From contig WELB01000026.1 of the NCBI GenBank assembly GCA_009602725.1, positions 73,134 to 137,133 of the forward strand: 64,000 nucleotides of DNA, given 5' to 3'. The position numbers and the translations under genes were made by a program. This stretch comes from Spirogloea muscicola (taxonomy: Eukaryota). The notes below the pieces were generated by a model that worked only from the letters and a program-made list of their open reading frames with translations, was not told the DNA's origin and did not search any database. Positions 173 to 60,136 of the stretch are shown here, piece after piece; position 1 is the stretch's first letter, and each line of letters opens with the position of its first letter.

Positions 173-2003
173 ATGGGCGACCCGTCGGGCGGCCTGGGCG
201 CCACCCGCACGGCGTCGGCGGAGCGGCCCGCGGCGCCGGGCGAGCTCGAGGCGCACGGCATCACGCCGCAGCTCTGCGACTTTGTGCGCGGCCTCACCAT
301 CCAGACCTTCAAGCAGTTCCCCGACGCCGACCTCATGGGTACCCGCTCCCCTCGCGCCCCACCCCAATGCCCACCGCTGCGGCGTCTCCCCGGCCCATTG
401 ACGCGCTCCCCCTCTTCTCGGCGCCAGCAGCGACGCCGCACGGCGGCGGCTTTGGCGCGGAGTCGTCAAGCGCGCAGCCTTCGGATGCCAGGCATCAGAG
501 CGGCGAGCGAGGTGGGCGGGGTGCCCTGGACCTCACTCCCTGGCACGAGCGCCATGCGGTGCTGATGCTTCACGAGGTGGAGGTGCGTGGCTCTGGCCCC
601 AGTGCGACGGCGCTCGCAGCCCTGTGCCCCCGCTGCCAAGCGCACGGCACTGTGCAACAGGGCCTCCCAGCCGATGGTGCTCACGCGCCAGCTCACTGCC
701 ACCACCTCGCTCCCCCACACCTGGGCTACTGGATTGCAGCCAGGACAGCCGCCTCTCAGAACGGGTAGCCCCTTGTCTCTCATTCTCTCACTGGTCTGCA
801 TACGCCGTTCTGCTTGGCAGGAGATGGCGGACTTCCGTTATGTCCTGTGCCCGCGACGGATGACGGAGCACCGCTTCTGGCAGATCTACTTCACGCTTGT
901 CTGGTCCTTTATAGCCCCGTCAGCCTCCTACCCCTCCCACACCCTGCCTGCAGCCCTGGTCAATCAGACCCTCGACCAAGGACTCATGGCTGAAGGAGGC
1001 TGCTGACCAACTTGTGCAAAGGACTGTGCGAACAACCCATGCAAGCCTGGTCAGGCACATGCGTGCTTGTAACCCTTTGACTTGGCTTCTCAGCTGACCT
1101 GCCTTCACCCAGTCCCAGTCAACAGGAGCGTGACCAGTTGGAAATGCGACGTAGAATGCAGGCTGGTCCATGTTCATAAAAATCGGTCGATTGACAGGAG
1201 AAAGGCGAGACAACAGGGGCCACCAGGTTGGCTTGGTGCCATGACGTGCATGTGCAGCTGACACAGCACCTCTGGGCTTGTGCAGCAGCTACGAGCAGAG
1301 GGTGGTCACCAAGGCACAAGGAGCCATACCAGAGCATGTCATGCCGCAGCCTAAGCCTTCAGTCGAGGCTAGTGTCTCTACACCAGCAGCAGCTCCTACA
1401 GAAGCAGCTCAAGGTGTTGAAGAGGAGCTTAGTGCCAGAGCTCAGCAGGATGTCGATGGGGGTGCAGCAAATGATGGTACTCCGAGGAGCACTGATCAAG
1501 ATATCGATGCATACCTCTTGGGACTTGGTAGCGGTGATGAAGCTGCAGGTCAGTCTCAACGTTTCAGGGTTTTAGGGTTCGCACTGTGGGCAGATGTGAG
1601 ATGTAATTGTGAGCAGAGGAGCTGTACACGTATCTCATATTACAGCTTTCCACATCCTTGTGAGCAGACGGCAATGATGACGATGATGGATTTGATGCGG
1701 ACGCATTTGACCACTTCGTCAACAGTTCTGTGAGTCTAAACCACCACGTGTGTTTCATTGTAAGTGCACTGCCATATGGACTGCACATGCTTCCTACGTG
1801 GCAGTAAGAGTAATGAAAGCGCCACTTCTATGCAGTCAAATGACGATGACCGGGAGGGTAAGAGCCAATCTAGGAGATCACCCAATGGAAATAAGGAGTG
1901 GAAGGAGAACCACATGCTACAAGACAAGACTCCTGATACCGGTATGAATAAGGCGGACAACATTGATACCCCTGTCTTGTCTGAGGGAACCAGCAGTGTC
2001 TAA
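173..2003 (+). CDS. BSD domain-containing protein (multi-exon; 3' end uncertain, 1807 or 2003)
   Basis: Exons join via GT-AG: ...LCDFVRGLTIQTFKQFP; LDLTPWHERHAVLMLHEVE|EMADFRYVLCPRRMTEHRFWQIYFTL (BSD signature LCP.x.E..FW.IYF); acidic C-terminal exons at about 1280-1548 and 1668-1729. Confidence 0.85.
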
Positions 2004-2380
2004 GTCTAGCTGTAGCTAGCCTGTGTACAGAGTAAGAGTTCAGCTGAGTTGAGTGTCAAAGTAGAATGAGTGCAAGATGAGGTAATTAAGTATGTGCCGT
2101 GGCCACCCCGTCTGCCATGACATGCATGGCAGATCAGTGGTGCTCATTTGATGTGCCTGTGTTATTAAGCTGCGCCTATCCTGTGCCTACATAGCTGCAT
2201 TGTTTAGTAACGTGTTGCTGGGCAAAGCCCACCGCCTAGGCAGCAAGCAGTGGTCTTTTTTCTCTTGCAAGCATTAGTCTGTGTGAGTTGTCAAGGTCTG
2301 TGTACATAGTACTCCGGATAATCCAGCTAGTAGCAGCCGCAAACTGGGACTAAGAATGGGCCCTGAGCAATAGCCCTGGC

Positions 2381-4613
2381 TCAGGCAGCAACAATAGACA
2401 TGTTCTGCTGAAGGTCAACTAGGGTTGTATGTTCCAAGTCTGGGTACACAGCCACAGCAGATGAAAAGTCCTGCACGCAGTAGATGATGCCTCTTGAGCA
2501 GGTCAGGTATAATGTGCAGCGTAGCAGCTTCAGTCTGCATAAGCATCCGACACATGCGCACATACCCAACTCACTTGATTTTGTGTGCTGCCAGTGTAAG
2601 TGATGATGCACCTCATGCCTGCCCCATTAGCAGCCTGAGCGGTAACAAAGAACACCCACTCAGCAGCGCCCCCTGCTTTATCAAACAGCTGCATTCGCAC
2701 TAGGGCTGTTACAAGAAATTCGTGCAAGATGCAAGATGCAAGATGCCTAGCAGGCTGCTGGTGTATGGAAGCTCAGTCAACACAGCGGAGGCTCAATGTC
2801 AACATATACAGCCCAGTAACAATACCACAGTACGGCCCTTGAGGAGTAGAGCATAGTCGTACTTTGAATCAAGTAGAGCTGACCTGCAACCCTATGAGAC
2901 TGTCCTCCACAACAAGGCAATGATCCGGGTCTACTCGCAGTCTCTGCAGGTACGCGAGAGGCATAGCATTGGACATGCATCGGTTATGCCCACGTTAGGA
3001 TCATCACATGCAATTTGTCAGTAGTAGTGCCAGTGTGGCACTGCACAGCACAGTCAGCAGGCAAAGCAGTTTGCATGCGGACCTCGGCAGCAGTCCTGTA
3101 AATTGTTGGGTCAGGTTTCTTCTTATCCACATCGTCTCCTGAACCAGCAAACATCTTCCCCCAAACTCAATTGACCATGTCAGGACAGCTTCACCGCAGC
3201 TTTCCACCCAAGCACACTCCGCATGCAACTTCACACCATTTCAAGGCCATGATTCGCAAAGTTCATCCTCGTGGAGCTCCCGTACATACCAGCAAGGAAG
3301 CAGTCTAGTAGCTGAAAGCGATCCTGCACATCGTTCAAACCCTCTGCTTAGACACTCAAACTGTTGCATTGGATTCCTAGCCACCACACAAAGTAGTTCA
3401 CGAATATCTCTGCATGCACAACCACTCAAACTTGTTACCGAATATCGACTGCATGCACAACCACTGTTTCCACTCAGAGATCAGGAGAGAGAGGTGGCAG
3501 TGTCTTTACCTACCTGACCGAGCAGAGTTTCAAGGCAGAAGATAACAGATGATTTTGTGGCTGCAGAACACACAGCCACCTTCAATCCCTGCTTGAGAGA
3601 AGTTTGTGGGGCAATCAGAGATGACGAACTCTGGCAGTCTGAGCACTACAGCAAGCCACGTGCTTGTGTTTGCTAGAGACGTTGTTAACTCAGCAGGCAA
3701 GGGCAGTGGTCAGAGGTGACAACCCTGCTGCGTGCCTCGTCCATCATGCTGACAACGCCAGGCCTTGGTTGAACCTGCAGATGCCAACCTCCTCCTGAGT
3801 CATTGCGCAAGATGGTACATCTCATGCACGACAGTACGAACTACCCTGCTTACAAACACGCTGAGCGACCAGGGAAACTCCTACATTGGTGCGGACGGTC
3901 ATGTCTCACCCCTCCTGATGCAATGATCTCCTGATACCTGGTGGTCTTCCAGTCCTGCAAAGTCATCAGGCACAAACAGGCAGAAGGCTAGTGCAAAAGC
4001 TTCAGGGACCATAAAAAGCTCCAATCCCCAAGCTCCACAGAGGCATACGTTCGAACGAGTGCATGCAGTCCAGCCAGGACAACCCTCAGGCGCATATCCA
4101 CCACAGCATATCCACCACAGCAGCTCAGCTTCCGACTGCAATGGTCTGACAGTACGGAGATGCTAAGGAACCTGCAGCGTATCAATCAGTTTCGTCTTCT
4201 CCTCGTCAGATTGAGGACCAGAGGGGAATATGGTTGAGGTTGGCCAGCCATTCTCCCCAAAGAACCTGCAGTTCCTCCGCAGCACCTCTCAGCAGTAACA
4301 CAATGGAGCCATGGACGAGTGTTCCTTCTGCGGAGTCAGAGGGGGGCGGCAGCTTGCCGTCTGCGCTTGCAGCCGTCGACGTTGGCCCCAGGTCAGCAGA
4401 CTATCGGCAGACCGTCTATGCAGCACTATCTCTCAGGGCCAGCCTGCCGCCATGTTGCATGTTGTCAATTGAGCGCATAGCCGAGGGCACACGCACACGA
4501 GAGGAAGGAGCGGCAAAAACTACCAGCGCATTTTGGGCTTGCCGCCACCAATCTTGTTCTGCAGGTCCTCGTAGAACTCCGTTGTCCAGTCCACAGGTAG
4601 GGAGCCAGGGCAC
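2381..4613 (-). CDS. HAD-superfamily hydrolase, CbbY-like (resembles Arabidopsis At4g39970); N-terminal exons missing at gap
   Basis: GT-AG exons give WTTEFYEDLQNKIGGGKPKMRW, FFGENGWPTSTIF...KLIDTLQ, DWKTTRYQEII, VQPRPGVVSMMDEA, GLKVAVCSAATKSSV, DCFLAGDDVDKKKPDPTIY, CLVVEDSLIGLQ, CIITYTGSTQNQ, DFSSAVAVYPDL...IVAA*. The DxD motif exon was not found. Confidence 0.88.
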
Positions 4614-20069: not shown

Positions 20070-20658
20070 TGTCGTGCCTGCCCGTATACCGCTTACTACG
20101 TGTCGAAGTGCCACACCTGAAGCTCTGCCTACAGGCGAGGACTCTGCTTTGTTTGCTAGCAGTAGCCTGTCTTGCATGGCCTCACTAACAGGCGAGCAGA
20201 CCTGCAAAGAATGTGGCAGAAGAGTCACCACATCCGCCGTCGATCTCTTAAGAGACCACCCCGCGAGGGGGGGTCAAGGCAGTAGGTACAGAGACTTAGT
20301 ACTCGGCGCCCCGGGGCTCTCTAGCCCGCCCATACGGGTTGCGCCCTACCCAGCGGGTCACCCCATGGTTTACCCCCGCTGAGGTTCCCTATACCACCTT
20401 GCTACCTGAGATATCCGACCAGGGTTAGCCCTGGTCGGTTCCGTCCAACCGCCCTCTAGCCGACGCTACGACGACGCTCTGCGCCCGGGCATGACAGCTG
20501 TCGTGCCTGCCTATATAGCGCTCACTACGCGTCGAAGTGCCACACCTGAAGGTCTGCCTACAGGCCAGGACTCTGCTTTGTTAGCTAACAGTAGCCTGTC
20601 CTGCATGGCCTCACTACCAGGTGAGACCTGCAAAGAATGTGGTAGAATAGTCGCCACA
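20070..20658 (-). mobile_element. Family C LTR(s) at the 3' end of the DNMT-Gypsy element: full LTR 20496-20070 plus a tandem partial copy 20658-20499
   Basis: TGTCATGCC...GGCACGACA inverted termini; 20070-20232 is repeated at 20499-20658; homologous solo copy at 44750-45338; N gap at 20671. Confidence 0.65.
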
Positions 20659-20754
20659 CCCCCCCCCCCCNTCCCCCCCCCCCCCCCCCCGGCCTGAATC
20701 TGAGGCAGCTGCATCCTCTGAGGGTTAAGCATCCTAACTATGACAGCGATATGC

Positions 20755-20889
20755 GCAGCGCGGGCAGAACCACTGCCCCGCCGGCACCTCAGCAAGAGGT
20801 GGTTGCAGGCAGCCAGTGTGCCACCCCTCATTACAATGATCGAATAGCAGCATGGGCGGCTCAGTATTCAAGCCGCCACACACTTCACA
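20755..20889 (-). other. PHD finger at the integrase C-terminus
   Basis: CEVC...MLLFDHCNEGWHTGCLQPPLAEVPAGQWFCPRC: Cys4-His-Cys3 pattern with the third Cys replaced by Phe. Confidence 0.88.
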
Positions 20890-23010
20890 TCTCATCCCCT
20901 CCATCAGCAAGGTGTAGTCAATAGTGCAGTCCACGTCGGGAAGATGGCACGGCGCACAGTTGCGCTGATGCTCCGCGACAGTGGATCCGCACCGGCCCTG
21001 CAGCAGCAGCACGCCGCTGGGCCTCACCTCCTTCACTTGCAGGACGACCCGCCGGACACCCGCGTCCAAGGTGCTGCGCTGCTGGCGCTGCACGTACACG
21101 TCAGTCGCCGTTCTCAACTACATCACCCGTGGCTGGTACTTCCCCGACCGCACCTGCGCGAAAGACAGCTTGTCGCGATGCTGCGCCACCGCCAGGTTGT
21201 CCATCGCCATCGGCATGACCCTGCGGAAGAGCCTCCCGTGCTCCTCGCAGATCGCTATTCAGCGCCCTGGGCTGTTCATGTCCACCACTGGCTCCACCCG
21301 CAGTCGGATGGCAGCTGGCAGGAAAGGATGCCTGCCAAAGAGCAAGAAGTATGGCGAGTAGCTCGCCAACGCCGCCTGCTTACTCATTCGGTACCCCATC
21401 AGCGACCAAGGAAGAAAAAGATCCCAATCCCTGGTGTCCCTCTCCAGGCAAAACTTCCGCAGTCCTCTCTTGACTGTCTGGACCATCCGCTCCGCCAGCC
21501 CATCCGCCTGTGGATTGTTGCGCGAGGTTGTCCGGTGGTCAATCAGAGCCACCTCCAGGAGCTGGTCGAAGGCGCCACGGAACTTGCTGCCTCCGTCGGT
21601 CAGCACCTCCGCGCAGGCCCCAAAGCGGCACAACACCCGATCCAAGAAGCAAGCTGCGATCAGCGAGCTGGACTTGTCTGAGATTGCACAACTTCCACCC
21701 ACTTGCTTCCATGCTCCACCATGATGAGAATGTAGCGTTGCCCACGCTTCGACAGTGGCAGCTCGCCTGCAAGATTGAGACTCCACCTGTGGAAGAGTCC
21801 GTTGATGGGGAGTGGATGCAGCTCCACGCTGCGCACCGTGAGGTTGGCTCGGACGCGGTCGCAGGCCTGGCACCGCGCCACCACCGCAGCCACATCCCGG
21901 GCCATCCCCTCCACCAGTGACCACACGCCACCAGGCTGTGGGACCTCTTCACCCCAAAGGGCCCCAGCACCTCATGCTGCTGCAGCACCAACGGCGTCCG
22001 CTCCGCTGGCCTGGGCACCACTCTCACCCCATTATCCATTTTCAAACGCAGGTGGTGGCCCTCGCGCCACCGGTACCGTTGCGCCCGCTGCTGCACACGG
22101 TCCTTGCTTGCCTTGCTCATCCCCAGCGGATGTTCAAGCCGCTGGAGGTACTCCAACACCTCCAGGTCGCTCCACACGTCCGGATCACCCCCAGCCGCCT
22201 GCTGGGCGGTCTCCCCTGACACGTGCCTCCGAGAAGTGGATGCAGTCAATCTGTCACCTGCCACGGGACCGCCCTCACGTGCAGCATCGCTAGTGGCAAA
22301 GCCTAGCAACTGCGGCATGGCTCCACAGCAACAGTACGACCTGAAGGGCCCCTCCATCACCGCGAGCCTCGCACGCCGGCTCCCGCTCCACGCTCCCCGT
22401 GGCTCCACCTTAGCTGAATCGCCTCGTTGCTCCACCGAGCCACCGCCAGCTCCCGCCGCTTCCGATCCCGCGCTGCCGCTCAGTCGAGACGCCATGGCGG
22501 TCGGACTGTGCCGCAATACCAGAGATGACTCCAACCCGCATTGCACCTTTCCAACATCGCATGCATGCGCCCCAGCCACAGAAGGAGACAACCTGAAGGA
22601 CAACCTGAAGGACCCCTCCATCACCGCGGGCCTCGAACGCCGGCTCCCGCTCCACGCTCCCGCCGATGTTAGAAGCGCCTGCCGGGTGCAGATCGCAGGG
22701 TCTTCGGGCGTGTCAAGCAGCTGCAGCAGCATCGCTGAGGCAGACCACGCAGGCAGCTCCACTTCCTCCCGGTCGTGGTCAGCTCGCGCCACGCTCCCGT
22801 CTCGAGTACTCGGGTTGGGGTTGAGACTGAGGCCGTCCGTGTCCATGTGTACCTCCCCGGCGCGATGTCGAATCTCAAACTTGTACTCCTGCAGGATGAC
22901 CACCCATCTCGCATGCTTTCCTGTGAGCTTCTGGTTCGTCATTAGCCATTTTAGCGGCTGATGGTCGGTCACTCGCACAAAATGTCCGGCAGTACAGGTT
23001 GGGCCGGAAG

Positions 23011-23862
23011 TGTGACGGCCCTGACCCTTAACAGCACAGTCGAGGGTCAGTACGTCCTTTTTGGTTACGGTCGCTGGGGTTTAGAGACAAACCCCCAGCA
23101 CAGTGAAAGCACCACGTGTGATACGCAGCGGAAGTCTCGCCCTGAGGCGCTGCCGACAGGCAGCGACTCACCTCTCAGGTACGGGCCAGCGACTGTCCTC
23201 AAGGGAGCAGCCACAGTATTACTCACAGAGAGCCGACGAAGGTCCGCGACAACGGGATGCGGCGACGGGCTGCAGCAGCGGGCAGCAGCAGGGCTGCGTC
23301 GGCGGGCTGCGGCAGCAGGCGGCAGCAGGACTGCGCCTCTCTCTCGCGGGCTTCACTGAGGTTGACCGGGTTGTCTCTGAGTCGGCTGTCAGCCCTACTT
23401 GTAGTGCTTCATGTGCCACCCTCCCCAGGGGTCTCCGGGAAGGCGGGCCCGACAAGGGGAATCTAGTGCGAGGGCAGGCCACGCGGCTCCCTTCCGGAGG
23501 CGGCGGCCGTCCTGCGGTGCCGCCGAGCGGCGCCTTGCGGCTCCGGCTTGCGGCGCCGCCAGTGAGTCACTGGTGTGGCGCGGCGTCACAGGCGCGCCAC
23601 ACGTGTACCATACACGTCATTGCGGGCACGACGGCAGAATCAGGATATGCCGAGAAGCTCCGCTCTGGAAGTCCAGGATTCGCCGCCTCGGTTGGAGGCG
23701 GCGCGCCTGCACGTCACATCGTCAGCAGGCGCGTCACACCGCGCGACACCTCGCGCGGCGCTCTCGCGCTGTCGCACGCGCGTCGCACGCTTCAGTCGCG
23801 AGCGCGTCAGTGGTTAGCGCTTACCTCGAATTTAAGCGTCCCGTAACAGCGGGGATGTTACA
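23011..23862 (-). mobile_element. Solo LTR, family A, inserted in RNase H of the DNMT element
   Basis: TGTGACG...TGTTACA; perfect TSD GGAAG (23006-23010, 23863-23867). Confidence 0.9.
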
Positions 23863-25373
23863 GGAAGTGCACCACCGCCCACACAACGCAAAGGCACTCG
23901 CCTTCGTACGAGCTGTAGTTCGCCTCCGCGGGGTTGTTGGAGCGGCTGGCATATGCCACCAGATACTCCTGTTCCTCCTTCTCCTCCTGCACGAATACTG
24001 CTCCCAGAACTAGTCGGCTCCAGTCCGTATGTAGGTGGAACGGCTTGGAGTAGCCCGGCCGCCTCAGCACCGGCGCAGATGACAGGCGCTCCTTCACCTC
24101 CTCGAACGCCTGCTGCCGCGGCGCGGTCCACACCCACGGCTTCCCCTTCTTTAAAATCTCATTCAGAGGCTTCACCACAGCAAAAAAGCCCCGCACGAAC
24201 TGCCGATAATAGCTCGCCAAGCCCAGGAAGGCCCGCAGCCTGCTGACGTCCGTAGGCACTGGCACGCGCATCAAGGCGTCCACCTTCGCGGGCTGCACGC
24301 CAAACCCTCCTGGCGACACCTCGTGCCCCAAATAGGATACCGTGCCCACTTCAACCCTACGGTATGAATAACCAGGATGGCACTTCATACCGGATGCCCC
24401 AATCCTCCCAAGCACGGCCTCCACGTGCGCCAAGTGCTCCGCCACCGTTGTACTGAACACCAACACGTCGTCGATGTAGCACTTTGCGAAGCGCAACCCC
24501 GCCAAGACCTGGTCCATCACCCTTTGAAATCTGGCCGGGGCGTTGCGCAACCCGAGTGGCATGCGCGTCCAATGGTAGAGCCGCTCCGCTCCCCAGAAGG
24601 CTGTCTTTGCCCTGTCCTCCATCTTGATCTCAATCTGATTGAAAACCTGTCGCAGGTCCAAGACGCTGAACACGCACGCTGCACCCAGCTCGTCAAAGAT
24701 CTCCTCTGGTGTGAGCATGGCATAACGATCGGGCTGAATCACCTCATTCAGGGCGCGGTAGTCCCCGCACATCCTCTTCTCCGTCCATTGGCCGAACAGG
24801 TCCTTCTTCGCCGGCATCACCATGGGAGCCGCGTATTGCGACTCCACTCCTCAATGAGCCCCACCTGCTTTAGCTCCTCACAGCGCGCCTCTCCAACAGC
24901 TCCCGGAACTGCTTCCGCTCCTCCTCTGACAACGCCTCTTCCATATCCCACTCGTGGGACAGCTTCTCCTTCCCTGCTCCCACTTCCTCCTGCGGTGGTT
25001 GCTACGCGGGCCCCCCCCCCAGCCTCCTGCTGCTGGGCCCCATGCAGCGACGGGATCCCCCCTGCAAGGACCGGTATGAATGCTTGGTGGCTGCTCCACT
25101 GCCACCGACTCCTCACCCAAGGATGCCGATGCAGGCAAAAGGGTTTGAATCGACCTGCAGGGGCCCCTTTCGGAAGCCCCTGAATTGTCGCTGCAGGCAC
25201 TCGGGTTGTCCGCCCGCGGCCTTGTGCGCCAACTGTTCGTGCTGCGACTCTACTCCCCCCCCAGTGGGAAGCCGCCAGCGCCTGCGCGAGCCGCCCACTG
25301 TGTGTAGAGCCCCTGCGCCCAATGCCACGCTGCCTGCTGGCTCCGCTGCGCGACAAAGCCTACTGACAGCACC

Positions 25374-26850
25374 CAAGTGAGAGCCCTCAGATCCATCGCC
25401 TGCCCCAACAGCTTCCGACGCTGCCTCTTGGTGAGCCCAGGAGCTGCGGTCGTGCCGGTCCCGAAGCCCAACGCCCGCTCCCGCTCGTCGGCACGAGGCT
25501 CCTCAAGTTGCTGCGTGGTGTTGTCCCACACCATGCCGGGCCCTCCATACCTGAATGCATAAGACGCCGGGTAGCTTACCAGCGTGGGCAGCGTAGCCCG
25601 TGGCTGCACCACCTTGTTGCATAGCGCGAACGGAGTAATGTCGTCCCTCTCCACTGGCTGAGGCATGCTCCGTGGGTCCAATATGTCCGCCACTAACACT
25701 CGCCCCTACACACGCAGTTAGGGTGAGTCGTCCTTGTTAGGTTCGGCTGTAGGGGGGTACAGGGACCAACCCACTACACGGCTTAGCACTAACGCATAAC
25801 GCAGCGGAAGACAGGCCCTGCGGCGCCGCCGTCCGGCGGCGACCCCACCTCCTGGGCGCGAGCCAGCAACTGGCCCCCAACGGGCGCAGCCACCGACTCC
25901 CCGCAGCGAGCCCCGCAGCAGGCTGCGGCAGCGGCTGCGGCCGCGAGCAGCGGCAAGGCTGCTCCTGTCGCCGGTCCGAACTGATGTCGGGTCTCGGCTC
26001 AAGGCTCGTAGTGCTTCCCCCGTGCCACCCCCCCTCCAGGGGTGTGAGCGGGTCGCCCCAAGGCCTGCCCTTGCGGCGGGCCCAAGGTTCCCCCCCTTGG
26101 CAGGGTTGAACCTGGCGAGGGTTAGTCCAGGACGGGCGGGAGTTGCCCTGGGCGGCCCACTGGTCCATCAAGCGGCTAGCGGTCATGTAACGCTAACAGC
26201 ACCGTGTGGCATAACCAAACGGCTGGATCGTTACAAACAGCCCGGCTGGGCGCTTGACTTACGCGGCCGCAGCTGCCACCAACTCTGGCTGCGCCAGATT
26301 GGTCCACTGCATTCGCAGCTGGTGCGCGCGGTTGCCCAGAGCAGCTGCGTCCACAGGCACGCCGCGCCCAATGCGGCTCTCCACCACCTAAAAGTCACGC
26401 CGCACATTCTCGCGGCGGTCGTCGCCTGCCGGCACGTTCTCCAACACGTATGCTAGGGGGGCCTTCTGCCCCCCCTGCAGCAGCGCCAAAACACGCTCCA
26501 GCTCCAAAAGAGCCGCGAGCGGTGGTCAGCCAACCCTCGGCCTGCAACAGCGCTGGAATGCCCTTGGCATTCCCAACCTGCAACCACCAGGTCCACCTGT
26601 CCCAACCCCCTCAGGTGGTGTGGGCCCACCAGCTGGATGTCGGCCGGCAGGGTGGTGAGGTACCCCTTGATGGCCTCCAGGGTCAACAGCTGCGGGTACT
26701 GGTCCGTCAGCCGCCGGATGTGGTGCGCTGCTGCCGCCTGCGCCACCGGATCTTGGTCGACGTACATGTACCGCTTAACGCGCACGCCGTTGGCCACCAC
26801 CTCCGCCAGCCCGGTGGCGATGCCGGCAAAGAACTCCACTAGGACGACAC
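25374..26850 (-). pseudogene. C5 cytosine DNA methyltransferase catalytic domain (DNMT3-like) within retrotransposon pol
   Basis: Motif I VLVEFFAGIATG; motif IV DLVVAGWECQGHS; RSRLFW; motif VI YVLENV; motif VIII AHQLRMQWTNL; motif IX ERERALGF; motif X RRKLLGQAMD. One frameshift near 26505, two in-frame stops, solo LTR at 25699-26235. Confidence 0.88.
25699..26235 (-). mobile_element. Solo LTR, family B, inserted in the DNMT domain (one end slightly trimmed)
   Basis: Homologous to other B LTRs; AACA on both flanks; removal restores frame KRPAGL|LVADILDP. Confidence 0.8.
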
Positions 26851-27129
26851 CACCGTCTGGGATCGCCCACTCAATGACCGTGCTATCCACCAGCAGCTCT
26901 CCGTGCAGCTGCACATCCGCCGGTGGACACGTGGGCAGCCACCAGGGCCAGCTGCTTCCACGAACGGTCTACCAGCTCTTCCACCTGCCTCGCTTGCACC
27001 ACGGGCCTATGGCCAGCGCCAGCTGCTCCCAACCGCACGGGCGCCAGTGACGTGGTTGCTGCCTTTTCCTGCGGCATGTCACACAAGTCGCTACCCACCC
27101 ATGCCGCTTCTCCTTAGCAAGCGAATGCG

Positions 27130-44019: not shown

Positions 44020-45880
44020 CGGAAGGCGTGCCATATGAGCTCGTCTGCAGCACGCCTCTTTCACCGGCATTGGTGCACGTGCTTTTGCAAGTGGCTCAAA
44101 CGATAGCGGTTGAGAGTCGCCTGCTAATTTCTGCAGAGCGACATTACAGGCGAGAAGGAATTGCTGGCTGTGGTGCACGCCTCACGTGTCTGGCGTTGCT
44201 ACCTGGGAAAGGTGTGGAGATTACAGTTGTGCGACGCCTACTTTGGTGGCAGGGCTTTTCAGCCCAGGTGCATGCTTCGTGACAAGCTGTGCCACATGCC
44301 AACGTAGTAAGGCACTTTCTGACAAGCCTGCCGGTTTTTAAGCCCATGCAGATTCCAAAGCCGAATTGGACTGGTATAAGTGTGGGGTTTTTCCATACAA
44401 CTGCTTAAGACGCGGAGCAGCTTCATGCCATTGCTTTCTTCGTAGAATGTTTGAGTACAATGGTGCATTCTGCTCCTACGACCACGCGGGCATCAGCGAC
44501 GGATATCGCTGGCATCTTCGTGGAGATGGTGTGGAAGCTGCATGGTGTACCTGAGCGGTGTGGTCTCAACCGCGAAAACCGCTTCTCGGATCACTTGTGG
44601 AAGAAAGTCTGCAAGCTTTTTGGCACGAAGCAGGCCAAGTCCACAACCTTCCATCCACAAACTGATGGGCAGACTAAGCATAGAAGCGGGTTCTCGAGGA
44701 CATGCTGAGGCACATTGTCAATCCCAGCCAAAGTGACTGGAATGAGTAAGTCATGCCCTGGCACAGATCGTCGTTGTAGCGTCGGCTAGAGGTAGCTCGG
44801 CTACAAGGCAGTCGGGCGGGCAGGAGAGCCTTGGGCGCCGGCCGCTTAGTGCCTGTACCTACTGCCTTGAACCGCCCTTGCGGGGGTGGGCCTTGATGAG
44901 ATCGGACGGCGGAGAGAGGCCATCTCTCCAAAAGCCCCCCCCCCCGTTGGAGAGCAACCTAGCGCCACCGCTGCCGCAGCCGTCTGGCGAAGGTTCGGAG
45001 GGTTCGGCGCGCGTCGCGAGTAGGCCAGCGCTCCAGGTCAGGGTGTCCAGGGGCCCGGAGCGGTGAGAGATCCCCGGCGGGGATGACCACGCAGGAGGCG
45101 CAGGGGTGCGCAGGACGCTGGGACGAGGAGACCCCAGGTCCGGAGATCCTCCAGAAGAGACCAATTACTCACGGAGAGGAGTAGTGCTGCTCTTGCCATA
45201 TTCTTTCCATGTCTGCTGACCTGGTATTGAGGACATGCAGGACAGGCTGCTGCCAGTCAAGCAGGGTCCTGGCCTGTAGGTGGAGTTCCAGGTGTGGCAC
45301 CTCGACGCGTAGGTGGTGCTATGCGGGCAGGCACGACATGTATTTGGCTCCAGCGAAATATGCTGTGAACAATGCCCTACCATGAGTCCACCAAGGAGAC
45401 GCCGTTCTTCCTCATTTCTGGTCAGCATCCCCGAGCTCCAGTTCAGGTGGAGAGGCCAGAACGCCTTCCCGCCGCGGGAGCCCGTACTGGAACCCTCTTG
45501 GAGGCTCCAAGACGGGCTCGGCATTTCTTGGGGATTGCCCAGCGCCTCCAGAAGGCTTTTGATGACAGACATCGGAAGGAAGTGTCATTCGACATTGGTG
45601 CGCTGCTGCTGATTACGAAGCACTTATGCGGCCTGTTGGTACGCGCAAGTTGTACCCAAGTGGCTGGACCATCTGCAGTAGTACGCCTTGCGGACAAGGT
45701 GTCATACGAGCTGCAGATACCCGTGAAGTGGAAGGTCCATGATGTCTTCCATGTGTCTCAACTGAGGGCCTTCCATTCGGTTTGCCGTGTCCAACCGCCC
45801 CACCTCCATTGTGATTGAGGATGACCTCGAATTTAAGGTGGAAGAGATCTTGTCTCACAGGGACAGTCTCCGTGGGCGCC
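44020..45880 (+). pseudogene. Decayed RNase H/integrase/chromodomain fragment
   Basis: TFHPQTDGQT; VHDVFHVSQL; EFKVEEILSHRD; split by solo LTR C. Confidence 0.75.
44750..45338 (+). mobile_element. Solo LTR, family C
   Basis: GTCATGCCC...GGCACGACA; both ends homologous to 20070-20496; interrupts integrase at DWNE|YLAPA. Confidence 0.7.
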
Positions 45881-52419: not shown

Positions 52420-55400
52420 CTAGCGTCCCGCAAGCCATCGTTGCATGCTAAAGAATGCGGCTATCATTAAGTCTACAGCGCTCCCAGGCACTCGCGATAC
52501 ACCAGCGTGCTGGTCGTGCATTATCCCAGGCTGATGGCTTCCGTGGTGGTGGTTTGGCTCCTCAGTACAGCTTGTCAGATATGAATGTGCTCACTTGGGG
52601 ATATTTAGTGTCCCCCTTAGCCAGCTCATTACTCAGTCAAAGGACATTCATAAGACCAGAATTGGCCTCCCTTCAATTTCACGCGGACCGCGCTCCTTGC
52701 CAATCTAGGCTACACGCGACGTGCAGATGTGTTTCCGGCTGAGATGGGCTTGCCAGCTGCAAATCTGTCGTTCTTGCGACGACGTTTCGGCCTGTTTGCA
52801 GCATGCTCAGGCTAATGCTTTGCACCAGAAAGCTGGGCGAGCTCTAGTTGGTCGTCGGGCCGAGCGATCAAACGAGTGGGGGATAGTTTTCCGGCAGCTA
52901 GTCTGTCGGATGTGAGGCTCCTCGCTCGTAACTACTGAGTGGTCCATCCTCCCCCGTTCTGCCATAGCCTCTTCAGGCCCTGCAGTCGCTGCTTAGCTCG
53001 TAGTGTGGCCCCTTGTCAATTCTTTTCGGGCTGGCTTCTCACAGCCCTCGCCCCCATTGGGAGAGCCACTTCTTCTAGTTGGTGGCAGTGGGCTTCGTTT
53101 CTGACATCTAGTATCCAGGCATCGATTAGTGACCTTTATGTTTTGTGCTCATTAACCCGTGGTTAATGAGCAAGCAATCTGCTGTAGATTTTGTAGGTCT
53201 TTAGATGTGCTTGCCTGTGTACTCGGCCATTTGGCCTTCGTTTGTTTCAAAAACACGAAATTGCGTGAGGGATGTGAGAACGTGTTTGGAAAGTGATGGA
53301 GGGCCAAAATGATTGCACTTCCAGGGTGTCCAATCAGAAGTAGTCCAATCTGCATTTGTTGAGTGGAGCTGCTTGATCATGCATCTGTAAGTCACAGAGA
53401 GATTACGATCTGGCCGCGCTTGCTTAATGAGTAGATTTGTAGTTTGCGCCTTCCGGCCCATTCATGCCTTCTGGGCTGGCCTCACAGCCATCGCTTTGCC
53501 ATCACAGCACGGACTTTGGACCAGCTGTTTCCTTTTCCAATCGTGTATTTTCCCCCATTCGATGCCCGAGGGTGTGGAAGTCCGGGAAAGCGCGCCAGCT
53601 GCCCGGTTCCAGCGGGGTCGCCCGTCATGGACCCGGCCTACAACTAACTTCTCCCGTTCTGACATAGCATCTTCAGGCCCCTTCGTAGCTGCTAAGCGCT
53701 TTTTAAACGCTTGTCCGTCTCCCTCCAGCGGTCCATGGCGCACGCCTTGCATCTGCGTGCTGGCCGTGCTCTCGCTGCGGCCTCCGGCTTTCGTCAGGGG
53801 GATGGTTTACCGGCAGCTAGTCTGTCGGATGTGAGGCTCCTTACTCGTAACTACTAAGCGGTCCATCCTCCCCCTTTCTGCCATAGCCTCTTCAGGCCCC
53901 GCAGTCGCTGCTTAGCTCGTAGTTTGGCCCCTTCGAACCTTGTCAATTCTTTTCGGGCTGGCTTCTCACAGCCCTTGCCCCCATTGGGAGAGCCACTTCT
54001 TCCTCTTTTTAAAGGCCCCTCCGTCATTTGGCCCTTTCGAACCTATGTCAATTCTTTTCGGGCTGGCTTTTCACAGTCCTTGCCCCCATCGGGAAGTGCC
54101 AGAAGCCCTTTCTTCTTTTTCTAACTTCCGGCAGAGCCCTCGCTGCTGCCTCTGGCTCTGGCCAGGGGAAGAAAGGGCTCGCCCATCGAGGGTAGGGGCT
54201 GGAAAAGCCAGCCCTAAAATAGAAGCCAGAGGTCCTGCCTCTGGCTCTGGCCAGGGGACCCGCTTCCAGGAGCCCAGCTTCTTTGACCTAAGGCTGCTTA
54301 GCAGGGGTTACTGAGTGCTTCGTAGCTGCCTTGTTTCTTCTTGTGCTTGTTTCTCTTAGCGCTTCCCTGGCCCCCTACTCATACTTTTTTCGTCCTTTTT
54401 GGGCTGGCTTTTCCAACCCCTATCCTCAATGGGCGAGCCCTTCCTCTGACTTCTATGAACAGCCAGCCCGAACAGCGCTGCCAAATAGAAAAAAGAAGTG
54501 GCTCTCCCAATGCCAGCCCCTCTTCTCTCGAGCACTTTCTTTCTCCCAATGGGGGCAAGGGCTGTGAAAAGCCAGCCCGAAAATAATTGACACAGGGTCC
54601 AAGGGGCCACAATGACGGAGGGGCCTGACAATGCTATGTCAGAACGGGTGGAGAATGGACCACTCAGTGCCAAATTGACTGGTGGCTGTGACAGAAAGAA
54701 GAAGTGCGCGCCCATAGAGAAGAAGAAGTGGGTCTCCCAATGGGGGCAAGGGCTGTGAGAAGCCAGCCCCAAAAAGAATTGACAAGGTTCGAAGGGGCCA
54801 AACTACGAGCTAAGCAGCGACTGCGGGGCCTGAAGAGGCTATGGCAGAACGGGGGAGGATGGACCACTCAGTAGTTAGGAGTAAGGAGCCTCACATCCGA
54901 CAGACTAGCTGCCGGAAAACCATCCCCCTGACGAAAGCCGGAGGCCGCAGCGAGAGCACGGCCAGCACGCAGAGATGCAAGGCGTGGGCCATGGACCGCT
55001 GGAAGAAGAAGTGGCTCTCCCAATGGGGGCAAGGGCTGTGAGAAGAAGTGGCTCTCCCAATGGGGGCAAGGGCTGTGAGAAGCCAGCCCGAAAAGAATTG
55101 ACAAGGTTCGAAGGGGCCAAACTACGAGCTAAGCAGCGGCTGCGGGGCCTGAAGAGGCTATGGCAGAACGGGGGAAGAGGGGCTGGCAAAGCCAGCCCAA
55201 AAAAAAATGGACAATGTCCAAAGCCAAAGAAAGAGGAGCCGGAAAAAGAAGAAGTGGCTCTCCCAATGGGGGCAAGGGCTGTGAGAAGCCAGCCCGAAAA
55301 GAATTGACAAGGTTCGAAGGGGCCAAACTACGAGCTAAGCAGCGACAAAGGAAAATGCGGAAAAAGCGGAAAAAGGACTACACTACAAAACACTGCGAAA

Positions 55401-58400
55401 CAAATAGACGATGCAGAGGGAAGCTCAGTACCCACCGAAGGGGAGTTGGTGGATGGGGTGTGCCCTCCCCGGAAGTAGTGCAATACTGGGGCGACGCTGG
55501 CGGGCCCGAGCAGCAAGCTGCCTCTGTGGGTCCCGCCCCCCCGCATATCATTATATCATAAAACATTAGAAAAATCAAAACAATATATGTAAAATACAAA
55601 ATATAAAATTTAATTTTTAAAAACTAAAAAATTAAAGATATTTACTATCATGTGACCTGATGGGTCATGAATAAGATATTATACTGATAAGAACAGGTAC
55701 TACACTTGATCTTAGCCAAAAGGCCGAAAGGCTGTGACAGGCCAGCTACCGCGCTCAGCCGTGACGAACCAAGCGCGAGTTGCAGAAGCAGAGGCAGGGC
55801 AGGTACCTGACGAGAGGCGCGCGTTGCGCATGAAGGAATATCGTGTATTTGAAACAAACGAAGGCCAAATGGCCAAGTACAAAGGCAAGCACATCTTAAG
55901 ACCTACATAAGCTACAGTAGATTGACCCGCTCATGCACGTTGCGCATGGAGCCCCCTTGCTGCCCTCTTAGCACTTAGTACCTGGTTTTTTGCGCCATCC
56001 GGCTCCTTCAGACCTTGTCCATTCCTTTGGGCTATCCTCGTACAGCCACCTAAACCCTCTTTTTCTGTCGGCGAGCAATTTCTTACAGCCACTGGTCAAT
56101 TTGGACGCGCTCTTGAGCATGGAACAGAAAGAATATGGCGACGGCTATTAGTAGAAAGAGAGAAGTGGCTATCCCAACGGGGGCAAGGGCTGTGAGAAAG
56201 TGCGCTCCCATAGAGAAAAGGTGCTGGCAGAGGCCAGCCCGAAAAGAATGGACAAAAAAGCAAAGAGCCAAAAAGGTGCCTACAAGGAAAAGACACAGCT
56301 AGACACAAGACGACGCATCGGGAAACTCAGTAACCCCTGCTAAGCAGCCGCAGGTCGAGAAGCTGGGCTCCTGGAAGCGGGTTCCCAGGCCAAAGCCAGA
56401 GGCCGCAGCGAGGGCACGACCGGCACGCAAATGCAACGCAAAAGCCATAGACCTTTGCAGCGAGACGGACAGGCGCATTCGATACACTTGTGCGAGCGAG
56501 CCTGCAACATGGAAGAGAAGTGGCACTCCCAATTGGGGCAAGGGCTGTGAAAAGCCAGCCCGAAAAGAATTGACAAAGTTTCGAAGGGGCCAAATGACGG
56601 GGCCTAAAAAGCGTTAAGCAGCTACGAAGGGGCCTGAAGATGCTATATGCAACATGGAAGCCCACCGGCTCCCCATGGTAGCGGCGGGAGAGGGCGTGGC
56701 GCACGAGCTGGTTGAGCAGCTCGAGCCACCGAGCACCCACCCTCCGAGAAGACAGCCCGAAAAGTAATTGACAAGGTTCGAATGGGCCAAATTACGAAGG
56801 GGCCAGAAGCGCAATTGCAAAACTGGGGTAGGCTGATTCACTCAATGGCAACGAGTGAAGAGCCTCAAATCCGACAGACTAGCTAGCGGAGAACACTCCC
56901 CCTGACGAAAGCCAGAGGCAGCAGCGAGAGCACGGCCAGCATGCAGGTGCAAAGCGTGGGCCATGGACTGCTCAAGGGATATAGATTCGCATGCAGTGTA
57001 CCTGAGCCAACGAGCCAGCGGCAGAAGGAAAGAAGAGAGAGAGAAGGCGCGCGGTGCGAATTGGAAGGGAGGCCATTCAAGCCAATACATTGTTCAGGCA
57101 CGAATTTTTGCAAAAAATGAGGCCGCATGAAGCGAAGCCCTGTGCTGAGGTGGCTAAGGTAACAGTGTGACGTTAGTACCCACCTGAGCACATGCAAAGC
57201 CGACAAGCTGACTCAGGGAGCCCGAGCGCCGACATGGAAGCCGGTGGCCAGACTTGGAGCTCGCGCAGCTCGCTGATGAATAGCCAGAGCTTGCGAGCGC
57301 TGCAAGAAGCGAAAGCCGCATTCTGTAACATGCTACTAATGCCTGCGGAATGCAAGTGTGCCTCAAGAAAGGCCATTCCAGTGAAGGGCGATGGCTGTGA
57401 TTGGCCAGCCCAGTAAAAAGAACTGAGTAGTATTTGAAAGGGCCAGAATTTCATTAAAGCACAGCGACTCGAGTGGCCACTGGGTGCTCAACACCCCCTC
57501 TTGAGAAGCCGCAGGTCAGACAAACTAGTCACCCGGTAGCGGTCCCCTGTCTGTAGCCAGAGGCTGCAGCCAAAAATTGGAGGCCAAGCCTAGCCAATAA
57601 ACAGCCTAGGCAACAGAAGGCAACTAAAGAACAGCAAAGCTTCAAAATACTGGGCGATGACAGTGAAAGGCCAGCCCAAGCAAGGAAGCTCTCCTACAGA
57701 GAGAAAAGCCCTCTCGGAAAGAAAGAGAGAAAGGTCGCAGATGCTGCCCCGGCCAAATAAGCAAGCATGCCAACCATCTGGTGGTGGATGACAACGCCCC
57801 ACTTGCGGTAGACGTCCATGGGGCAGTGGCTGTTGAAGTCCAGCCCAAATATTTTAGAAAGGTCCACAGGAGCCGTAACCACCTAGGAAGCAAGTGACCA
57901 CTACGGATGGCCGCTCAACAACCGACTAGCCAGAAGCCACAGCCGAGAAAGCCAGCAGCCACAAGCTATCTCCCCGCTCATAGGTGGAAGTGGCAGGCAG
58001 GGGCCGCGGCCAGCACGCAGAAGCAAAACGTAAGCCAGGGAATGCCGTGGAGATGTGGCAGTCGCACGCGGAACAGGAAGGCCTGACAGCCATGGCGTTG
58101 CAGTCTGGCTGCTCTTCTTGCTACTATAGATCACCGCTCGTAGCAAACACGGGTGCAGAAGGCAAAGCTACCGAGCCTTCAACGCCCCGTTGACGTGCAT
58201 GGCAAACACGTACGGTCATTATCCACCATGTGATTGGCATTCTTCAGTTGCTTGGCTGGGGCAGCATCAACGACCTCGTGCCCTGCCTTCGACGTTCGGG
58301 GGGCTAAGTCGGTGTATTTAAAAGCTCCGTGCTAATCAATCAACGGTAACGCTGGAATCCCTGCAAGGCGTGCTGACCGTCACCTTGGCAGGCCTTGTAT

Positions 58401-59490
58401 GGGGACTGTCGGCCCGGACCTGGATGGGCATCACTATTCATCTCTCTATGTGCTGTATATCATGTACTGCATTTGATCCCGTGCCTTCAGGAGGATGGCA
58501 AAGAACACAGCTTCTGAGGAAATCATAGGCAGCCGTCAATCCCATTGAACATGTACAGCGGAGTCCCTCTGCCGCCAGCTCCGTAAAAGCCATGCTCCGC
58601 TTTCCACTCTCGCTCTGCGACACACCAGGGGGAGATGGTGGAGCAAGGCCAAGGAGGTGGTGGCTGCCCGGATAGAAGAAGGCCTTGGCCCCTTTGAACC
58701 TTTGTCATTTCTATTCGGGCTGGCTTTTCACAGCCCTTGCCCCCGTTGGGAGAGCCACTTCTTCTCAAAAGAGGTGAGTGCTGTATAAGAAGGTAAGCAT
58801 ATCCATAGGGGGCGAGGACTGTGAAAAGCCAGCCCGGAAAGGAGAAGGTCTGAAGGGGCCGAACAGCGCTGAAAGCAAGTACTGAAGGATGATCGTACAG
58901 TAACCACTAGATAGCAACCGCAAGACAGAAAGAAGAAGTGGCTCTCCCAACGCGGGCAAGGGCTGTGGAAAGCCAGCCCGAAAAGAACAAAGGTTCGAAG
59001 GGGCCAAATGACGTAGGGGTCTAAAGCGCTAAGCAGCTAGGAAGGGGCCTGAAGATGCTACGAAGGGGCTGGAGAAGACAGAAAGTCGCGAATAGGAAAG
59101 AAGTTGGATCTTCCAAGGGCCCCTTTTCTGGCCCCTACGAAATTGTTCATTCCTTCTTCCTGGGCTGGTCAAATGCAGCCATCGGCCTCTACTGGAAGAC
59201 TCATATCCAAATGGGGCGGAGGCTGTAAATGAAAGGAAATTTTTTTTCTGGCCCCTTCTGGCCAGAAAACCCCACGCTCCGCTAAGGGGAATAACGTGTA
59301 TTGAAACAAACGAAGGCTGAGGGGGGCGCCCCTCCGTCATTGTGGCTTAGGCCCCTCCGTCATTTGGCCCCTTCGAACCTTCGTCAATTCTTTTCGGGCT
59401 GGCTTCTCACAGCCCTTGCCCCCATTGGGAGAGCCACTTCTTCTTCTTCTTTCTTCTGGCCAGAAAAGCGTTCAAGCAACCAGCTGTGAA
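52420..59490. mobile_element. Cluster of 5'-truncated CRE-like LINE 3' ends in both orientations
   Basis: At least 15 copies of TTCGAACC...GGGCTGGCTTCTCACAGCCCTTGCCCCCATTGGGAGAGCCACTTC(TTC)n, often preceded by ORF-end peptides (RMRLSxSLQRS...SDxRLLxRxY*). Confidence 0.75.
55455..55735 (-). ncRNA. U2: U2 snRNA copy (probable pseudogene/variant) with an 81-nt AT-rich insertion
   Basis: TCGGCCTTTTGGCTAAGATCAAGTGTAGTACCTGTTCTTATCAG; Sm site AATTTTTT; stem III with GCTTGC; stem-loop IV loop ATTGCACT. Confidence 0.88.
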
Positions 59491-60090
59491 TGAGTGAAGT
59501 GGCTCTCTCAATGGGGGCAAGGGCCGTGAGAAGCCAGCCCAAAAAGAAATGACAAGGTTCGAAGGGGCCAGACTACGAAGGGGCCAGAAGCACTACTCAA
59601 AACTGGGGTAGGATGAAGGAGGAGCGAACTCTCAGTAACCTCTCGTCAGTAGATGCAAATCTGAATAGCTATCAGGCGGAAAGACGTCGCCCTGACGGAA
59701 GCCGGAGGCCGCCGCCAGAGCGCGGCCTGCGCGCAAGTGGACCGCAAAAGCTAGGGACCGCTGCAAAGAGACGGCCAGGCGCATCCGGAAAACTTGGGCG
59801 AGGGACCCGGCGACATGGAAGCCAGGCTGCTCGCCCTGCTACCCGTGGCGGCGGGCCGCTGCCCGCCGCGCAAGGCGGTGAAGTAGGTCAAGCTATTTGG
59901 CGCCATAAGGCGCCGTGTACGTCGACGGCGAGTGGGACAAACTCGTCGCCTACCGGGCGATCCGAGTACTTGCGATCCTTTGCGTCGGCCGCTTGGCGGA
60001 CGGCGTAGCCCGCCTCCTCCGCCGAGCGTGTAGCACTCCTGGAATCCAAGGAGTCCGTTGTGACGACGTCGGCAATGAGCCGAGGCCCCT
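59490..60090 (-). mobile_element. CRE-like LINE 3' part: RLE domain, stop (59632-59634) and 3' UTR unit
   Basis: GPRLIADVVTTD...AADAKDRKY...EFVPLAVDVHG...RMRLAVSLQRS...DLHLLTRGY*. Confidence 0.8.
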
Positions 60091-60136
60091 CCTAAACCCC
60101 GGGCCGCCGCCGGCGCCTTCGCCGGCGGCGCCCGCC

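Follow-up and report, generated by a model that had tools for sequence, protein, structure and literature searches.

The stretch analysed here, 64 kb of contig WELB01000026.1 of the streptophyte alga Spirogloea muscicola (the window), is a nest of decayed retrotransposons. Its minus strand holds, from 26854 to 20070, a decayed, 5'-truncated Gypsy retrotransposon with a cytosine-5 DNA methyltransferase (DNMT) of DNMT3 type, an assignment that our analysis confirmed. The methyltransferase is followed on the same strand by reverse transcriptase (RT), RNase H, integrase and a PHD finger (Table 1), and the RT-RNase H-integrase order and a polypurine tract are Ty3/Gypsy hallmarks. The domains beyond the methyltransferase that an initial annotation had named were recovered with hidden Markov models, RVT_1 (E 2e-22), RNase H (2e-28) and PHD (2e-9) by Pfam scan of the window pieces and the integrase (8e-55 and 1e-27) by a profile built in this analysis. 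Pfam scans, which covered the window pieces and the Gypsy-type relatives, matched no tyrosine recombinase; a DDE integrase is present instead. That annotation had placed the element at 20734..27100, which was right as to place but not as to the 3' limit, which lies at 20070; this copy lacks gag and protease.

Table 1. Features of the element and its relatives (window coordinates, except in the last two rows)
Feature	Position	Strand
N part of the DNMT3-type C5 methyltransferase, with motif I (EFFAG) and the catalytic Cys of motif IV (GWECQ)	26474..26854	-
Middle part of DNMT beyond the frameshift near 26510, with motifs VI (ENV) and VIII; interrupted by two in-frame stops	26232..26510	-
Foreign LTR-like repeat within DNMT (insert 2); other copies lack it	25700..26236	none
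DNMT C part (ERERALGF, LLGQAMD)	25346..25702	-
DNMT-RT linker, 502 nt vs 441-444 nt in intact relatives; frameshifted, partly deleted	24845..25345	-
Reverse transcriptase (YIDD) and most of RNase H, single open frame	23864..24844	-
Foreign solo LTR, TG..CA, within RNase H (insert 1); 5-bp target duplication GGAAG	23012..23862	none
RNase H, end part	22715..23011	-
Integrase, zinc-binding region plus core, frameshifted near 21905 and again near 21690; N at the first acidic position	21265..22180	-
Integrase C-terminal region (two stops), then PHD finger; ORF stops directly after PHD	20734..21264	-
Poly-G polypurine tract	20665..20690	-
Repeat B1, 166 bp; TG start directly after tract, end GGCACGACA	20499..20664	-
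Imperfect 20-bp palindrome B/GC/A, core GACAGCTGTC; proposed attachment joint	20488..20507	none
Repeat A2, 258 bp, start TGTCATGCC	20239..20496	-
Repeat B2, 88% identity to B1; 3' end of element (CA); insertion site is another Gypsy	20070..20238	-
Non-coding mini element of this family, ordered A, internal part of 280 bp, purine tract, B	44749..45338	+
Bryophyte-like ORF group, members	L001:2477-4660, L003:976-5082; P0007, P0163-P0180, P0183	
Post-PHD methyltransferase-fold domain	L007:11146-11835, L044:8063-8752, L013, L018, L021, L025, L027, L028, L032, L037; P0001 and P0039 C-termini	
LTR, long terminal repeat; ORF, open reading frame.

The methyltransferase and the state of the window copy

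Positions 3 to 328 of a 335-position profile, derived from 62 full-length homologues of the domain, align with the window DNMT in three pieces that are collinear (26854-26474, E 2e-45; 26510-26232, 6e-22; 25702-25358, 1e-41), which join across one frameshift and one 537-bp insertion without any need for introns. The initial report of intronless methyltransferase motifs upstream of and collinear with Gypsy RT, RNase H and integrase was thus borne out, and the domain is real and complete. Motifs I to X stand in unpermuted order (EFFAGIA, GWECQ, ENV, AHxLRxxWTN, ERERALGF, LLGQAMD), with the catalytic Cys, the Arg of motif VIII and the Glu of ENV in place and Glu replacing Pro before the Cys. Pfam PF00145 matched the broken first piece weakly (E 0.004), under its curated cut-off. 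Classification of the domain rests on intact relatives: a profile of 24 of their domains found DNMT3A/B best among solved structures (E 7e-19, vs 4e-10 for DRM and 1e-7 for M.HhaI), and the AlphaFold model of the WEC-bearing relative L007 (pLDDT 95) matches DNMT3A/B with E 8e-19 and TM scores of 0.71/0.83. Among C5 methyltransferases the family domain thus stands nearer to DNMT3A/B than to DNMT1, DNMT2, DRM or those of bacteria, and we assign it to the DNMT3 type.

The unusual WEC of motif IV, already remarked upon in the initial annotation, is a family trait and not damage, since EC is the commonest form among 146 aligned domains (EC 84, PC 48, other xC 10, without Cys 4; the count includes the query itself, an EC, and a few redundant rows). 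The catalytic Cys is kept in 142 of the 146. In relatives the domain is under purifying selection, with dN/dS of about 0.11, 0.11, 0.13 and 0.03 in four of six pairs, the other two being saturated at synonymous sites.

The window copy itself is dead, because frameshifts and stops interrupt DNMT, linker and integrase and because gag and protease are lost; no tblastn match to the latter two was found above 27110, and above 27130 a plus-strand Gypsy stands in place of their region. Two solo LTR inserts had been proposed. Insert 1 is indeed one, whereas insert 2 (537 bp) belongs to a repeat of which the window contains at least five further, partial copies; its left end is eroded, and a search of its borders gave no clean target duplication. 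Contigs of public sequencing runs skip both inserts (joins 25694->26236 and 22972->23863). Contig depth was 1800-3300 over DNMT, about 2000 over RT and 2500-2900 over integrase, with single contigs near 150; although depth does not equal copy number, as the tool itself warns, and all four runs are one sample, this suggests some 10-20 related copies. Other contigs of these runs join the DNMT 3' side straight to the integrase region (21744->25081, 22410->25012, 22576->25134) and are deletion derivatives without RT. The RNase H-integrase linker of the window copy (22180-22715) measures 535 nt vs 72 nt in relative P0184, contains a 65-bp duplication and is still open.

A family of relatives across green plants

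The arrangement had been called rare, which overstates the case: the N half of the DNMT matches 627 clusters at 50% identity (the best 150 of the 627 were listed). Among the matches listed, the closest named proteins, with 86% and 74% identity to the piece used as query, are from Spirogloea muscicola, which supports the suggestion of a further host. Other named members come from Closterium strains, Marchantia (Mp8g17980, MARPO_0008s0049), Sphagnum troendelagicum, Scenedesmus sp. PABB004 and Chlamydomonas eustigma; none of the named matches is labelled Klebsormidium nitens.

The enzyme occupies two positions in these relatives. In 218 relative proteins, DNMT lies after RT/RNase H in 59, directly before integrase in 13 more, before RT in 19, and after protease in a record without RT in 36; in 86 it stands alone. 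The named chlorophyte relatives (Scenedesmus, C. eustigma) have it behind RNase H. P0184 and P0182 encode gag, protease, DNMT, RT, RNase H, integrase and PHD in one ORF, share 38-62% identity with the window in collinear order across the five domains, and stand closest to it in both the DNMT and the RT trees. In a bryophyte-like group (L001, L003), a gag-protease-DNMT ORF ends in a stop that is followed in the same frame by RT-RNase H-integrase-PHD, possibly with readthrough. The gag-protease-DNMT ORF1 form is also that of Marchantia Mp8g17980, whose annotation reads methyltransferase; identification of Mp8g17980 with MpDNMT3b was rejected, as MpDNMT3b is given as Mp5g09290 (10.1101/2021.02.12.428880).

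In the DNMT tree the RNase H-DNMT-integrase group, to which the named chlorophytes belong, is a clade (support 98 in a quick tree, 91/98 in a careful one). The careful tree groups the window with P0182 and P0184 (93/95), adjoining, with weak support (83/73), a Marchantia-Sphagnum-L003 group. The DNMT-before-RT group forms one clade in the quick tree (36 rows, SH-aLRT 91), whereas the careful tree, which is smaller, does not recover it. As outgroup of the DNMT tree, two distant DNMTs failed, and the RT tree had two window rows only as outgroup, so that the trees leave room for more than one origin of the family.

These relatives also bear on the simplest objection, that a host DNMT retrocopy came to lie by chance beside an ordinary Gypsy. 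The window is a nest of decayed elements and its DNMT-RT linker is broken, as such an accident would have it. However, intact relatives carry the same order in a single ORF, contig depth is similar over DNMT, RT and integrase, and DNMT and RT have the same nearest relatives. The linkage is therefore not a one-off juxtaposition, and we regard chance as refuted, with a negligible residual probability.

A Gypsy element with a captured DNMT3 is of a known kind, as the initial annotation recognised: KnitGypsy-Dnmt3 of Klebsormidium nitens was described in 2018 (PMC5890265). By published description, both have an intronless, unpermuted Dnmt3-type domain in the Gypsy coding region of a streptophyte alga, repeats of the form A-coding-B-A-B with Gypsy domains, and purifying selection, here in relatives only. 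The host differs, the text of that paper does not mention a PHD finger, and the passages of it consulted contain neither a palindromic joint nor an integration model. KnitGypsy-Dnmt3 was also presented as an event of the K. nitens lineage, whereas the relatives found here span chlorophytes, zygnematophytes and bryophytes. SymbioDIRS-Dnmt3 likewise combines a Dnmt3 domain in Pol with split repeats, but it is a dinoflagellate DIRS element with a tyrosine recombinase and no DDE integrase (PMC5890265). EpiLTRs and DAM-LTRs are LTR elements with methyltransferases and a chromatin reader, yet they carry a DNMT4-related enzyme, Dam and a chromodomain, and their authors separate them from streptophyte Gypsy-DNMT3 (bioRxiv 10.64898/2026.05.21.726589). 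Gypsy-7a_cRei of Chlamydomonas reinhardtii, compared by description only, is a green algal Gypsy with PHD finger and subdivided LTR but has no methyltransferase among its listed domains (PMC9940879). According to one review, green algae and charophytes have Gypsy and DIRS elements that carry methylases (PMC6338049), and another source repeats the streptophyte and dinoflagellate cases (PMC12344493). Our literature search, mainly of open-access texts, found no report of Gypsy-DNMT3 in Spirogloea, chlorophytes or bryophytes, nor of the joint described below.

Several features of individual relatives may be recorded here. P0060 and P0198 are DIRS-like proteins with the family's DNMT, RT and a Dam domain, and DNMT exchange between DIRS and Gypsy elements is possible. 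P0083, P0096, P0132 and P0135 have a G-patch domain between DNMT and integrase. After the PHD finger, many relatives end in an unannotated domain with a class I S-adenosylmethionine (SAM)-methyltransferase fold, which the window copy lacks; it shows DPF and SPW-like motifs (L007, L044), an AlphaFold pLDDT of 82 and weak Foldseek matches, adenine DNA methyltransferases among them (E 4e-4 to 1e-3). Apparent Copia-DNMT fusions (P0105, P0127) were set aside as Closterium gene models that may join nested elements, and P0271, labelled bacterial in a metagenome-assembled genome, matches the eukaryotic L002 domain and was read as a binning error.

Split end repeats and the palindromic joint

Downstream of the PHD stop, the window reads polypurine tract-B-GC-A-B, a DIRS-like split repeat that the initial annotation had missed. 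The element ends are split, as A...coding...tract-B-GC-A-B, and the termini are the TG that opens A and the CA that closes B; the window's main copy lacks its 5' end, and the 5' A comes from the mini element, host contigs and locus L013. In place of two full LTRs with TG..CA outer ends, the element thus has A at its 5' end and B-A-B at its 3' end. The same layout, defined as A-coding-B-A-B, is given for KnitGypsy-Dnmt3 in figure legends (figs. 1 and 4 of PMC5890265).

The B/A joint is a palindrome, CGACA-GC-TGTC, and the element ends map to its two halves. The strict form CGACAG[CT]TGTC occurs in 13 of 80 metagenome loci, in both architectures, and a relaxed pattern was seen 13 times vs 1.06 expected in the 3' regions of 32 PHD-bearing loci. 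In 12 of these 32 the joint lies 3' of PHD; L044 has it in a permuted contig, and L010 and L011 have a variant. These counts include some loci that are copies of one element and many contigs that end early. A G-rich tract lies 62-220 nt upstream of the joint in 13 of 13. Joints in viral contigs were dismissed as chance, an 18-base search having given four matches in a phage-like gene without retroelement domains.

Host contigs point to the same termini. Mixed flanks occur where A starts (17+6 contigs, agreement 0.38-0.51) and where B ends (11-14 contigs, 0.41), whereas the end of A is followed by one conserved sequence that matches the leader of the mini element; no mixed flank appeared at the start of B among the matches listed (12 of 229 loose-end rows). 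L013 begins at the A half-site, with unrelated DNA and no B before it, L011 reads tract-B-GC-A-B, and the mini element is flanked by a 4-bp duplication, AGTA/TGTA, with one mismatch. At 44909-44929 a hairpin could form between the last part of A and the beginning of the leader, and self-priming there is possible.

Since B comes after the tract and A before the leader, the functional LTR would be B-GC-A, holding its integrase sites in mid-repeat rather than at its ends. RNA running from A1 into A2, with plus-strand priming at the tract, would be reverse transcribed into (B-GC-A)-internal-(B-GC-A), and end-joining of this cDNA would give a 2-LTR circle, leaving an A2/B2 seam. A staggered cut, CA^GC.TG, would then produce two recessed CA-3' ends with 2-nt overhangs, a normal integrase substrate, and insertion of the opened circle would yield exactly A-internal-B-A-B. 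Opening of a 1-LTR circle, or cutting of both joints, would give A-internal-B, a dead end because it is without terminal redundancy. In IS3-family circle junctions, too, a DDE enzyme opens a palindromic joint in a circle. Likewise, HIV pre-integration complexes cleave and integrate 2-LTR circles at a palindromic CA-nn-TG junction, although there the joint is made from LTR ends and the route is a side route, whereas the window joint is encoded inside the repeat and would serve the main one (PMC4372172).

Some observations sit poorly with this scheme. L006 and L019 lack the joint although their 3' sequence exceeds 3 kb (the other loci without it mostly lie on short contigs), nothing like a tRNA primer site could be recognised behind A, the 5' flank is visible in one locus only, the target duplication is known from one degraded site, the mini element, and the flank result draws on the 12 listed of 229 loose-end rows. 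The circle and methylation steps are inferences from sequence, and no circles were observed. Split ends could also arise without circles, if integrase cut the internal joints of linear cDNA and B-A-B formed by tandem insertion or recombination, or a DIRS tyrosine recombinase could integrate the circle in trans. The A-internal-B mini element, the B-A-B-A start of L010 and the DIRS-type elements with the same DNMT and Dam (P0060, P0198) would suit such routes. However, B-A-B recurs in the window, in L011 and, per its authors' legend, in K. nitens, and the TG..CA ends and 4-bp duplication fit a DDE integrase, with no recombinase encoded. We consider these routes doubtful, though worth keeping in mind.

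Elsewhere in the window, 52800-59700 holds direct and inverted copies of a repeat of ~100-200 bp in an array, some 97-100% identical, and 59909-62842 (+) a proline-rich frame of 977 codons with an RT domain at its end (E 4e-12).

Possible role of the enzyme and wider meaning

We believe that the DNMT most likely marks the element's own cDNA, as has been proposed for the published elements. The enzyme would travel with Pol, draw on SAM and work, like DNMT3A, through its motif IV Cys, its motif VIII Arg and the Glu of ENV, and it would mark CG in cDNA or circle, while the PHD finger would read histone H3 and steer insertion. The DIRS-borne Dnmt3, the sole version shown to methylate CG, did so in yeast (PMC5890265). 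Overall we favour, with moderate confidence, a reading in which the window holds a dead, 5'-truncated Gypsy whose live copies methylate their own new cDNA and integrate via a circle opened at the palindromic joint.

Several points weigh against self-methylation. KnitGypsy-Dnmt3 gave no methylation in yeast, a result its authors call inconclusive (PMC5890265). The Glu that stands for Pro before the Cys may affect activity. The window copy bears no footprint of self-methylation, as its mild CpG depletion (observed/expected 0.77-0.92) is like that of neighbouring elements. Finally, the DNMT is not always fused to Pol: window coding is intronless but with a broken linker, and one ORF spans both in P0184 and P0182, but a stop parts gag-protease-DNMT from RT in L001 and L003.

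Conceivably, the WEC domain is catalytically weak or dead and retained as a DNA- or SAM-binding module. The Pro of the PC motif is replaced in at least 84 of 146 domains, and the K. nitens enzyme showed no activity in yeast (PMC5890265). Yet little or no variation is seen at the Cys, ENV, the Arg of motif VIII and the Gly of motif I, and EC and PC are mixed across both architectures, which makes this quite improbable to us. Alternatively, in the same element, a DNMT tethered with integrase and PHD might methylate the target site, or the new copy after insertion, and so dampen the element or its neighbours. Such a role would suit the largest group of relatives, in which DNMT lies between RNase H and integrase-PHD (the 59 of 218 proteins with DNMT after RT), and the near-constant presence of PHD; animal DNMT3, moreover, has a PHD-like ADD domain. 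In the window's own group, however, DNMT sits beside protease and RT, and in L001 and L003 in the gag ORF, which fits particle cargo. We think the tethered role unlikely, if somewhat less so than an inactive enzyme.

Taken further, marking of the element's own cDNA and integration through a circle would belong to an ancient, green-plant-wide Gypsy lineage, from chlorophytes to mosses and liverworts, with integrase sites shifted to mid-LTR as a conserved CGACA-GC-TGTC palindrome and routine integration of circular cDNA as in IS3. The built-in DNMT3 would naturally act on that circle, and a PHD finger and a second, unannotated SAM-methyltransferase fold would be additions found in many members; we see this broader picture as evenly balanced between right and wrong.

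In summary, DNMT3 capture by Gypsy is in print for one alga, and the present data point to an old, widespread family with two enzyme positions. Its conserved internal palindrome could account, in concrete terms, for the puzzle of DIRS-like repeats on an element that encodes an integrase, and it leads one to expect integration by way of a circle, which in retroviruses is a mere side path. Given the many intact natural copies, a retrotransposon's use of its own silencing enzyme becomes testable in culturable algae and Marchantia.

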